Below are positions 5,705-57,095 of a DNA stretch of 64,000 nucleotides, piece after piece. The stretch is from the NCBI GenBank assembly GCA_040752415.1, contig JBFMGU010000023.1:349-64348 (forward strand), in the 5' to 3' direction. The notes under the pieces were generated by a model. The model was given only the letters and a program-made list of their open reading frames with translations. It searched no databases and had not been told where the DNA came from. A program made the position numbers and the translations under genes. The stretch comes from Myxococcota bacterium (GTDB lineage: Bacteria > Myxococcota > JACRCW01). Position 1 is the stretch's first letter. Every line of letters starts with the position of its first letter.

Positions 5705-5766
5705 GGGTCCCTCCAGGCAAAACGGGAGAGGCTCATTAGAGGTGGCGGGCGCGGGAGGGCAACTGC

Positions 5767-24644: not shown

Positions 24645-24965
24645 TCAGTCCCGCAGCTTCTCCTCCAGCCGGCGGATGCGCTCCTCATGGTCGCGCACGG
24701 TGCTGCCCAGGGGCCCCACGAGGACGTGGTCGACGCGGTCCGAGAGGCGGTTGACCTCCTTCACCAGCATGCCGGTGAGCTGCAGCGACTCCCGCGCCAC
24801 GCCGGTCAGCTCGGCGAGCTGGGTGCTCATGCGAATCTGGTGCTGCGCCAGCTGGTCAACGCGCTGGTTGGTCTGGTCCAGGCGCTCATTGGTCTGGTCC
24901 AGGCGCTGGTTGGTCCCGCGCAGCGCGTCGCGGATTTCCTTGAGGATTTCCGTGTTGAGGTCCAT
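24645..24965 (-). CDS. Small coiled-coil protein with heptad repeats
   Basis: Start MDLNTEILKEIRD (ATG 24965). It contains RLDQTNERLDQTNQRVDQLAQ, encoded by three 21-bp tandem DNA units (24861-24923). Confidence 0.5.
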   Translation of the reverse strand: MDLNTEILKEIRDALRGTNQRLDQTNERLDQTNQRVDQLAQHQIRMSTQLAELTGVARESLQLTGMLVKEVNRLSDRVDHVLVGPLGSTVRDHEERIRRLEEKLRD

Positions 24966-25156
24966 GCAACGGACGGTAGCCAGCGGGGTGCCACACCGCA
25001 ACGTTGGCGACGACGCGAAGGGAGCGAACCGCGGCGCAGTCCGGGGTGGCATGGGCGCGAACACGGACACGCCGGAACGCATCGGGGAACCGGCGCGTGC
25101 ACCGCACCGGCTACGCCGATACGGCACCAACGACCGCGCTGGACCCGAGCGATTGA

Positions 25157-26251
<1,095 letters not shown>

Positions 26252-53664: not shown

Positions 53665-53705
53665 AGTAGACCCGCAAGACGTTGCGACCAAGCGAGGTTC
53701 TTCTC

Positions 53706-54011
53706 ATGAGCCCTGAAGCCAAGAAGATCCTGGACGAAGCCCTGCGCCTTCCTCCCGCGGTGCGCGAGGAGCTGGCTCACCTGCTCTGGGATAGCATTGA
53801 TGAATTCGGGGATTCCGAGGTGGAACAGGCCTGGATCCAAGAGGCGCTTCGACGGATCGCGCAGGCGGATCGCGACGGCATCACCTACGGGCCCGACGTT
53901 CTGGACGAGGCGCTGAGAGAAGAACTCGACAAGCGCTCGAAGGAGATCGAGTCCGGCGAGGTCCAAGGCATCCCCTGGGAAGAGGTCCGCAGGAACCTTC
54001 GCAAGGGGTGA
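53706..54011 (+). CDS. Putative addiction-module antitoxin (TIGR02574-like), apparently orphan
   Basis: MSPEAKKILDEALRLPPAVREELAHLLWDSIDE… matches the antitoxin family that pairs with RelE/ParE. No toxin ORF follows. Confidence 0.6.
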   Translation: MSPEAKKILDEALRLPPAVREELAHLLWDSIDEFGDSEVEQAWIQEALRRIAQADRDGITYGPDVLDEALREELDKRSKEIESGEVQGIPWEEVRRNLRKG

Positions 54012-55358: not shown

Positions 55359-56207
55359 GTGAACCGGAACCTCCTCATCCGCATTGCCACAGCGGTCGTC
55401 GCCGTCCCGCTGCTCATCCTGTTCCTGGAGCTGGGCGGGCTGTTCGTCAGCGTCGGGCTGCTGGTGGCCGCGGCGCTCGCCGCCTACGAGTACTTCGCCG
55501 TGGTGGCCAAGGATGACCGGCTCACGCAGGCGGTCGGGGTGGCCGCGGCCGCGTCGCTGGCGGCCATCAGCACCTGGGGCCCGCTGATGCCCGTGCGCAG
55601 TGAGGCGCGCATGTCCTCCGCCACGCTGCTGCTGGTGATGGTGGTGCTGATGTGCGTGGCGGCGTTCTTCCTGGTGCGTAGCGGGGAGATGACCACCGCG
55701 TGGCCCCGCCTGGCCATGTTGGTGGGCGGCGCGCTGTACACCGGCCTTCCGCTCTCGTTCCTGGCGCGCCTGCGCGAGATCCCGGAGGAAGGTCGACTCT
55801 GGTGCTACCTGCCCATGGTCCTGACGTGGGGCAATGACACCTTCGCGTATTTCTGCGGTCGCGCGTTCGGGAAACACAAGCTGGCGCCGGCCATCAGTCC
55901 CGGGAAGACGTGGGAAGGCGCCATGGGCGCGGCGTTCCTGACGGTGGGTGCGGCTTTCGTGTGGCGCGCCGTGGCCATGCCCTCCCTCACCGTGGCCGAC
56001 TGCGTGGGCCTGGGGCTGGGCATCAGCCTGCTGGGCCCCATTGGCGACCTCACCGAGAGCGTCTGGAAGCGCAGCGCCGGCATCAAGGACAGCGGCACCA
56101 TGATTCCCGGGCACGGCGGACTGCTGGACCGCATTGACGCGCTCATGTTCACCGCGCCCTACCTGTACTTCTTCGCCGAGTTCCTGCACCCCTGGCGTCC
56201 GTTCTGA
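55359..56207 (+). CDS. cdsA: Phosphatidate cytidylyltransferase
   Basis: Multi-TM with …SPGKTWEG… and …GDLTESVWKRSAGIKDSGTMIPGHGGLLDRIDA…, the CdsA signature. GTG start. Confidence 0.9.
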   Translation: MNRNLLIRIATAVVAVPLLILFLELGGLFVSVGLLVAAALAAYEYFAVVAKDDRLTQAVGVAAAASLAAISTWGPLMPVRSEARMSSATLLLVMVVLMCVAAFFLVRSGEMTTAWPRLAMLVGGALYTGLPLSFLARLREIPEEGRLWCYLPMVLTWGNDTFAYFCGRAFGKHKLAPAISPGKTWEGAMGAAFLTVGAAFVWRAVAMPSLTVADCVGLGLGISLLGPIGDLTESVWKRSAGIKDSGTMIPGHGGLLDRIDALMFTAPYLYFFAEFLHPWRPF

Positions 56208-56280
56208 CCGCTGGGACGCGTGGGACAAGTCCGCCACCCCACCCGGGCTGGCAACGCCCCGCCCTGAAACCACCGCAACC

Positions 56281-56490
56281 ATCCCGGGCAACGCACCCGC
56301 CATCCAGGCAAAGTGGCCGCCATGCTTGCCTGGGATATCACCATGCTTGCCTGGGATAAGACCCACCTTGCCTGGGATCGCAGCTACCTTGCCCGGGACC
56401 GCATCAATACTGCCTGGGATTTCTCCCATCTTGCCTGGGCCATCACCCACCTTGCCTGATCAAACCACCACCATGCCTGGTGTGCGAGGA
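56281..56490. repeat. Array of 10 contiguous 21-bp units with core TTGCCTGGGAT (first two units inverted)
   Basis: Units start at 56281, 56302, 56323, 56344, 56365, 56386, 56407, 56428, 56449 and 56470. Units 3-10 carry (c)TTGCCTGGGA(t) and units 1-2 carry the reverse complement ATCC(C/A)GGGCA. No frame gives Myxococcus-like codon usage. Confidence 0.7.
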
Positions 56491-56672
56491 GGCGTGCCGG
56501 GAAGGCCAAGCGCCACCCATGGAGCGCATGGCTGCTCCCCGTGGGCCCATGGGTGACCAGCCGGGCGTGCCGGGGTGCGCGTTCTTGAAGGTGGGTGGGT
56601 TCCGCGGAGCCGCAGCGAGGTACCTGCAGGGGTTTTGGACGGTTTCAGGCCTTGCACCAGGCAATCCGGCAC

Positions 56673-57095
56673 TCACTTGCCGCCCAGCAGCCGGTCCGCC
56701 TCCTCTTCCAGGCCGGGCCGCTCCAGGCCGCCGCGCAGCATGATGGTGACGTCCTCGAACTCGTAGGGGGAGAACTCCAGCGTCGGGTACGCCTCGCGGT
56801 CGCCCTCCAGCCATTCCTCGAGGACGCCGTCCAGGAAGTCCAGCAGCAGGTCCACGCTGGCGCCGCGCGGGCGCACGTCCTTCTTCTCCACCTGCGCTTC
56901 AAAGCGGAACACGTCGTCACCGGTGTGCACCAGGAAGCTCATCGTGTCGTGGACCTCGTCCTCCACGTGCACCACCTCCACGCGCTCATCCTTCTGGAGC
57001 TTGCCCTTGTGGCGCTTGCGGATCAGCTCTTCCACGCGCGTCTTCTCGTCGGCCCTCACCACCGCCTCCTCCGTCGCGCCCACGCGCCGCGACAC
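56673..57095 (-). CDS. Acidic hypothetical protein
   Basis: 140 aa with high GC3 and a GTG start at 57095. No family recognised. Confidence 0.5.
   Translation of the reverse strand: MSRRVGATEEAVVRADEKTRVEELIRKRHKGKLQKDERVEVVHVEDEVHDTMSFLVHTGDDVFRFEAQVEKKDVRPRGASVDLLLDFLDGVLEEWLEGDREAYPTLEFSPYEFEDVTIMLRGGLERPGLEEEADRLLGGK

Follow-up and report, generated by a model that had tools for sequence, protein, structure and literature searches.

The locus described here raises the question of whether a short tandem repeat lying between the ends of two converging genes is a gene, a site for a DNA-binding protein, a functional RNA, or a by-product of sequence turnover. The window, by which we mean the whole 64-kb stretch (64,000 nt) that was analysed, comes from an uncultured Myxococcota MAG and has a G+C content of 68%. 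On one side of the repeat is cdsA (55359-56207; Pfam CTP_transf_1, E 3e-60), which comes after uppS; cdsA and uppS make membrane-lipid and cell-wall carrier precursors. On the other side is a gene for a 140-aa protein of unknown family (56673-57095, minus strand), whose stop faces the array. The 140-aa protein is 99% identical to the NCBI entry 'MAG: hypothetical protein AB2A00_06910 [Myxococcota bacterium]', and judging from this match the two are probably the same gene with different starts. The repeat had been placed in a convergent intergenic region after cdsA, and the gene map agrees: 465 bp separate the two stops. G+C is at its lowest in the neighbourhood within this intergenic spacer, where C exceeds G on the plus strand; no AT-rich stretch was found near the array, the minimum G+C in 120-nt windows being 0.59. 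The GC skew is negative (C>G, plus strand) over approximately 56160-56520 and then positive over approximately 56520-56640. From the skew, both converging transcripts would be C-rich and G-poor toward their 3' ends, as around Rho-dependent termination zones.

A 21-nt tandem periodicity had been reported for this region and was recovered by two methods. Tandem Repeats Finder returned an array at 56325-56458 (period 21, 6.4 copies, 72% matches, score 93). Identity at lag 21 was 0.65 over 56325-56513, while no lag exceeded 0.44 in 5000 shuffles, and nowhere else in the 64-kb window is the lag-21 signal as high as in the array. The initial annotation counted ten contiguous 21-bp units. The repeat is real, but its composition is different: six units are good, three more are decaying and extend to about 56513, beyond the end given in that annotation, and two cores are reversed. 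The forward units start at 56325, 56346, 56367, 56388, 56409, and 56430. Units 1-6 have 0, 0, 0, 2, 2, and 2 mismatches to the 12-nt core CTTGCCTGGGAT, and 0, 0, 0, 2, 1, and 2 mismatches to the 11-nt core that had been defined initially. Unit seven (56451) is shortened to CTTGCCTGA, and in units eight and nine (56472 and 56493) only xxTGCCxGG is left, in exact register. TGCC occupies the identical unit position in 9/9 units; window-wide it occurs at just 0.5% of positions.

The first two units had been described as inverted. Reverse-oriented cores do begin at 56281 and 56302, but their spacing is 20 nt, and the second (ATCCAGGCAA) has lost one base. The orientation flips at a junction from which the opposed copies diverge. 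A further inverted copy had been proposed near 56650. What is present there is the 8-mer CCAGGCAA (56657-56664), which is also found at 5713 and 23234 (either strand) and is attributable to chance. A search for the core elsewhere, as the initial annotation had advised, gave no more: the 11-mer with up to two mismatches was found 15 times in the window against 14.2 expected, with 7 of the 15 inside the array, so that it is at chance level elsewhere and there is no second copy of the motif in the 64 kb outside the array. With respect to REP and MITE elements, the 21-nt unit is not palindromic and other dispersed copies are absent within 64 kb. An origin of the unit from the 3' coding sequence of cdsA was considered (16 nt, 81% match) and judged to be a chance resemblance.

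Table 1. Positions in the window of the array, its parts, and associated features.
Feature	Position	Strand	Description
Array-bearing intergenic spacer	56208-56672		465 bp between cdsA and the 140-aa gene (convergent); lineage-specific
Two reverse-oriented cores	56281-56311	-	ATCCCGGGCAA at 56281-56291; ATCCAGGCAA at 56302-56311; spacing 20 nt
Two TGGC-N7-TTGC motifs	56288-56322	-	Sigma-54 -24/-12 spacing; within the reverse-oriented units, antisense to cdsA; suggestive only
Orientation-flip junction	56304-56333		CCAGGCAA, 14 nt, TTGCCTGG; copies diverge from about 56318
48-aa ORF, rejected as a gene	56313-56459	+	In phase with cdsA; MAAMLAWDITMLAWDKTHLAWDRSYLARDRINTAWDFSHLAWAITHLA
Six well-preserved 21-nt units	56325-56450	+	12-nt core CTTGCCTGGGAT and 9-nt variable spacer (consensus ATCACCCAC)
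Three decaying units	56451-56513	+	Exact register; CTTGCCTGA.., CATGCCTGG.., CGTGCCGGG..

The period of 21 nt is also the length of seven codons, and the possibility of a coding repeat was therefore considered. A frame reading xxxLPGI had been noted initially, together with its rare codons (ATA, TCA, CTT), and both are as described. In addition, the third frame contains an intact ORF of 48 aa that starts MAAMLAWDITMLAWDKTH... and reads as M-LAWDxxx heptads (LAWDxxx six times), with GTG/ATG starts and a TGA stop; 16 of its 18 spacer codons have C or G as the third base. Codon usage was scored in 126-nt pieces against a table derived from 21 long ORFs of the window with high GC3. On this scale real genes gave 0.64 +/- 0.23 log-odds per codon, with 0.25 as the 5th percentile, and wrong frames gave -1.43. 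All six frames of the array fall far below real genes. The best is that of the 48-aa ORF, at -0.13, which equals the score of its own antisense frame, and the LPGI frame scores -1.9 log-odds per codon. The 48-aa ORF uses the rare codons CTT, CAT, AAT, and ACT, the last of which occurs 0 times in approximately 8000 training codons. No Shine-Dalgarno sequence was found for it.

Protein searches pointed in the same direction. The LAWD peptide and the concatenated other five frames gave zero matches against 5.8 billion proteins. This collection includes the neighbouring gene of the MAG, indicating that the depositors' pipeline called no gene at the array. A phmmer search of the LAWD peptide against 1.84 billion representatives gave 14 matches (E 1e-7 to 8e-4), which are heterogeneous: LSWDVTN, YLAFDRK, a subtilase tail with SMAWDGG x13, and 14-residue LLWDxxxAxGDxxx repeats. 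No Pfam family covers the W-D repeats of these matches, and from their sequences we read them as probable low-complexity resemblance rather than homology. Long W-D tracts do occur in real-looking proteins, namely the subtilase with its 13 SMAWDGG heptads and two proteins with approximately 20 LLWDxxxAxGDxxx 14-mers (P0014, P0005, P0007).

The array could thus be taken to encode a small 48-aa heptad-repeat peptide, or to be the remnant of a W-D heptad-repeat protein. The ORF is intact and is the best-scoring frame, its spacer codons mostly end in C or G, and W-D heptad repeats are found in real proteins among the phmmer matches. Nonetheless, we consider a peptide highly improbable. The codon score is under the 5th percentile for real genes and is no better than the antisense score, rare codons recur, and a Shine-Dalgarno sequence, a word-sharing homologue, and a gene call in any frame are all missing; the phmmer matches are mixed low-complexity repeats. 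The pattern of variation is also the opposite of purifying selection on a protein: sites in the core at which a change would be synonymous are fixed, whereas in the spacer the first and second positions of codons vary. The third base of the Leu codon is T in 6/6 units and that of the Ala codon is C in 6/6. CTT, with a frequency of 1.9 per 1000 codons across the window's genes, is kept in 5/6 units. These fixed sites and the retained CTT argue for constraint on nucleotides, not on a peptide. A heptad-repeat protein gene was rejected on codon usage, homologues, and purifying selection, and the earlier view of the array as non-coding holds.

Constraint on the nucleotides is most evident in the comparison of the core to the spacer. 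Relative to the consensus of units 1-6, mismatches were found in 6/72 core cells (12 columns) and 17/54 spacer cells (9 columns), giving a Fisher p of 0.001, or approximately 0.014 once the post-hoc pick of the best 12-column block is allowed for; the core and spacer statistics draw on six to nine short units and on a split picked after seeing the data. Pairwise identity among units 1-3 is 36/36 in the cores and 11/27 in the spacers (p=4e-8), the spacers being near the 28% expected by chance. Over units 1-6 it is 84% in the core and 50% in the spacer, compared with 28% by chance. Despite the divergence of the spacers, there are no indels across nine successive units and the spacing is exactly 21 nt. 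The array is non-coding, with internal evidence of constraint on the core motif and on its helical phase. The excess conservation of the core, the lack of indels, and the reversed cores together speak for selection acting on a motif of 11-12 nt and on the distance between its copies. Since 21 bp corresponds to two helical turns and the constraint is at the nucleotide level, a DNA-level reading is the most economical.

The spacers themselves are not random. Columns 15, 16, 18, and 20 are largely kept, and this shared consensus points to common descent of the units. It also bears on the resemblance to a CRISPR array, in which constant repeats alternate with variable spacers and perfect repeats at one end give way to degenerate ones at the other. 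CRISPR repeats are about 23-55 nt long and are separated by unrelated spacers of similar length, whereas here the repeat is 12 nt and the spacers are 9 nt. The spacers are diverged copies of each other (50% identity against 28% by chance) rather than unique inserts, and no cas gene was seen among the scanned neighbours. A CRISPR array was rejected on these grounds, in agreement with the initial annotation.

The main rival to a functional site array is a functionless minisatellite, a 21-bp unit amplified by slippage in a spacer created by rearrangement and now decaying. Common descent of the units is what this explanation expects. It is also consistent with the orphan status of the array, with its position in a lineage-specific 465-bp spacer at a synteny break, and with the lack of partner genes or signals. 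The units decay progressively from 56325 to 56513, and this monotonic gradient from perfect to degenerate is equally expected of a neutral array growing at one end, which counts against the binding-site reading. Other features are difficult to reconcile with neutrality. Neutral decay should strike all 21 positions alike, yet in units 1-3 the cores are identical throughout and the spacers are not; zero indels occurred in nine units; and slippage does not make reverse-oriented cores. We regard a decaying minisatellite at a rearrangement junction as possible but on the whole unlikely.

The synteny break is seen in the relatives of the flanking genes. In a scan of 185,579 species genomes the closest cdsA relative has 75% identity and the next, from Anaeromyxobacter, 43%. 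An unrelated gene lies 2 bp downstream of the closest relative. For the 140-aa gene, the sole relatives share 51-53% identity; they retain rapZ-ptsH-ptsI nearby and have an M48 peptidase gene 20 bp downstream. In relatives, the gap at the equivalent gene end is therefore 2 bp for cdsA and 20 bp for the 137-aa homologue, compared to 465 bp here. The loci compared were 56208-56672 of the window, L001 4831-4850, and L081 4414-4435; their neighbours differ. Such short gaps and different neighbours indicate that the 465-bp spacer and its array are lineage-specific and lie at a synteny break. The source lineage is a lone MAG, and no orthologous array was found among the relatives compared.

Pfam assignments were made for the genes between 42.4 and 63.1 kb. 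They comprise an M61 peptidase, an MFS transporter, a Fic protein, a Ser/Thr kinase with cNMP domains, a WD40 protein, an antitoxin-like protein, uppS, cdsA, two unknown proteins, rapZ, ptsH, ptsI, and a CarboxypepD_reg/VWA protein. Those closest to the array are of common housekeeping types or of unknown function, and they are retained in relatives that have no array. No rep, par (parA/parM/parR-type), transposase, or integrase gene was found among those scanned, which cover approximately 14 kb upstream and 6 kb downstream of the array. The antitoxin-like protein (109 aa, 53682-54011) matches the Pfam addiction-module component 'Unstab_antitox' (E 2e-17) and is encoded just upstream of uppS, with no obvious toxin partner.

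A synteny break directly 3' of a conserved gene would also fit a relic of a mobile or replicating element, either a multi-site transposon end (Tn7/Mu type) or plasmid or phage iterons left at a rearrangement junction. Packed direct repeats of approximately 21 bp with opposed copies resemble multi-site transposon ends and iteron-plus-operator layouts. We consider such a relic very unlikely, given that mobility, replication, and partition genes are missing from the flanks, that there is no AT-rich region, and that the outermost units are the most degenerate, contrary to functional transposon termini. A blastn search against 72,556 plasmids and 50,697 phages gave no similarity. The Tn7-end reading failed on a defining feature.

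Pattern searches for similar arrays elsewhere returned coincidences. A scan of viral contigs at period 21 gave 9 matches, all of which were judged to be coding coincidences. Two candidates were followed up and rejected. The ends of giant-virus MAG contigs (L141 1-120 and L145 1-130) carry near-perfect 21-nt repeats of ACAGACGCCACTATGCCTGGG, read as TDATMPG heptads, that have only the 9-mer TGCCTGGGA in common with the array. In a phage Mu-F-like head-morphogenesis gene (L144 11368-11402), CAC CTT GCC TGG GAC occurs twice, 21 nt apart, giving HLAWDGMILAWDD; this is nearly an array unit, in the same frame, with dissimilar flanks, and is taken to be a coincidence. The metagenome scan was run at period 22 (12 N, not 11), and its 51 matches are unrelated 11/22-nt repeats.

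A function at the RNA level was also considered. The scans for sigma-70-type promoters and intrinsic terminators predicted none. Because no terminator separates the cdsA stop from the array, transcripts of cdsA probably extend into the repeats. The element might then work as a cdsA 3' UTR or small RNA, with UGCCUGGGAU motifs titrating an RNA-binding protein (a CsrB/CrcZ-type sponge), or through pairing of reversed and forward copies into a structure for processing or termination. GGA is found in each unit, the plus strand is C-rich and G-poor over 56160-56520, as around Rho-dependent termination zones, and the reversed cores pair with forward units in the predicted fold of the spacer RNA (z -2.1 to -2.35 relative to shuffles). 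These z-scores are modest, however, and no hairpin loop recurs that would present the motifs: GGA lies in a small hairpin only at unit 5. Rfam gave no match over the array at E<=1, no csrA-like ORF was found in the window, and known RNA sponges are not marked by a strict 21-nt spacing. An RNA element is accordingly quite unlikely in our estimation. A CsrB/RsmZ-type sponge RNA was rejected specifically, on the lack of a curated-family match and the single GGA hairpin. Type III toxin-antitoxin repeat RNAs have units of approximately 34-47 nt and lie directly upstream of a co-oriented toxin gene. Here the unit measures 21 nt and the gene that follows is convergent, and a type III antitoxin RNA was likewise rejected.

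The best explanation, which we hold tentatively and with somewhat less than even confidence, is that the repeat does not code for protein but lines up, in helical phase, recognition sites for a single sequence-specific DNA-binding protein. One asymmetric 11-12-bp site (TTGCCTGGGAT) would be presented per 21-bp unit, the sites for the one protein would repeat on one helix face, and two sites of opposite orientation would bound the array toward cdsA. We infer that the core would then be constrained through protein binding to DNA. A phased binding-site array had been proposed in the initial annotation. The conservation of the core over the spacer, the exact 21-nt phase, and the reversed cores fit that proposal. 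The binding-site reading is favoured by the reverse-oriented cores beside the array, which slippage alone cannot produce, and by the lack of any coding signal, protein relative, or RNA family. It is weakened by the absence of a candidate binder, partner gene, regulated gene, or second locus from our searches, by the fact that both flanking genes end at the array, and by the lack of a related array in the viral contigs, plasmids, and phages searched or of a second copy in the 64 kb. As to its role, we can offer guesses: it may serve a promoter in the reversed units that fires antisense to cdsA, as its upstream activating or operator array, or it may work as a protein roadblock where two transcription units converge.

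The architecture is closest to that of the RctB 12-mer array at oriCII and of BvgA arrays at 22-bp spacing. Vibrio cholerae oriCII has six direct RctB 12-mers whose phasing and spacing are functionally required (PMC4551981). In both cases six direct, asymmetric 12-bp sites are separated by unconserved spacers of approximately 9-10 bp and recur about every two helical turns. Unlike oriCII and plasmid iterons, the present array is accompanied by no initiator gene, DnaA box, or AT-rich unwinding region; it lies in a chromosomal housekeeping context, and its motif is unrelated. At least three direct repeats of approximately 17-22 bp in helical phase, as expected of iterons, are present (six good and three weak units, spaced exactly 21 bp), and an iteron-type replication origin was rejected for want of an adjacent rep gene and an AT-rich unwinding element. 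At Pptx, six BvgA~P dimers bind every 22 bp on one helix face (PMC7250471). The likeness lies in the approximately six protein-sized units, the two-turn spacing, and the unequal strength of the sites. BvgA sites are inverted heptad pairs that abut the -35 element upstream of an operon, whereas the core here is asymmetric, no sigma-70 promoter was found, and both neighbours end at the array.

Partition sites provide another comparison. ParR/parC-type centromeres are built from direct repeats of 10-20 bp, placed end to end, on which a cooperative protein filament would assemble. In contrast to these, the array has no adjacent parA/parM/parR-type gene and is not in a plasmid context. A tandem-repeat partition centromere was rejected because no gene for a partition ATPase or centromere-binding protein lies between 42.4 and 63.1 kb.

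One feature could connect the array to transcription. On the minus strand, the reverse-oriented units contain two sigma-54-like motifs, TGGCGGCCACTTTGCC and TGGCGGGTGCGTTGCC, 20 nt apart. The pattern sought in a sigma-54 promoter was GG-N10-GC within -24/-12 elements resembling TGGCAC-N5-TTGC. The site running from 56302 to 56287 matches 9/12 positions of the consensus and that from 56322 to 56307 matches 8/12, and sites this good occur about once per 4 kb by chance. TGGC-N7-TTGC is found 7 times in the window compared with 3.25 expected, and there are 32 sites of at least 9/12 in 128 kb. As seen from the minus strand, the forward array sits directly upstream of these motifs, where enhancer-binding proteins sit. 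TTGC is already part of the core, though, and downstream there is no gene, only the antisense strand of cdsA. PexR, a bEBP from Myxococcota, uses three to five tandem enhancer repeats upstream of sigma-54 promoters, and its sites are interrupted palindromes, CACCG-n6-CGGTG (PMC12754779). The present array shares with PexR the tandem sites in a Myxococcota intergenic region and TGGC-N7-TTGC at one end. It differs in that its sites are asymmetric rather than palindromic and abut the putative promoter, which matches 8-9 of 12 positions and has no downstream gene. No sigma-54 activator domain was seen among the scanned neighbours. A sigma-54 promoter with enhancer sites finds no backing in the gene content: only the cdsA antisense strand lies downstream, and a bEBP was not seen among the neighbours. 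A more elaborate scheme would have an undescribed Myxococcota DNA-binding protein load the array as a phased filament between the converging housekeeping operons, driving a sigma-54-type antisense promoter (the TGGC-N7-TTGC of the reversed units) that controls cdsA/uppS, or acting as a programmed roadblock that separates the transcription units. We regard this scheme as distinctly unlikely.

The array opens no major question. If it is a real binding platform, it would represent a new pair of regulator and site in a barely sampled Myxococcota lineage, and an unusual case of a phased protein array located between gene ends and not at an origin or promoter. For now it is one orphan locus from an uncultured organism, and it provides a well-characterised case of an intergenic repeat whose core and spacing are constrained.

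The only other 21-nt repeat in the window is coding. It consists of three copies at 24852-24915, read as NQRLDQT heptads, within a coiled-coil ORF on the minus strand (24645-25229). A TGGC-N7-TTGC motif is present at 25449-25463, approximately 220 nt upstream of this ORF and on the same strand.
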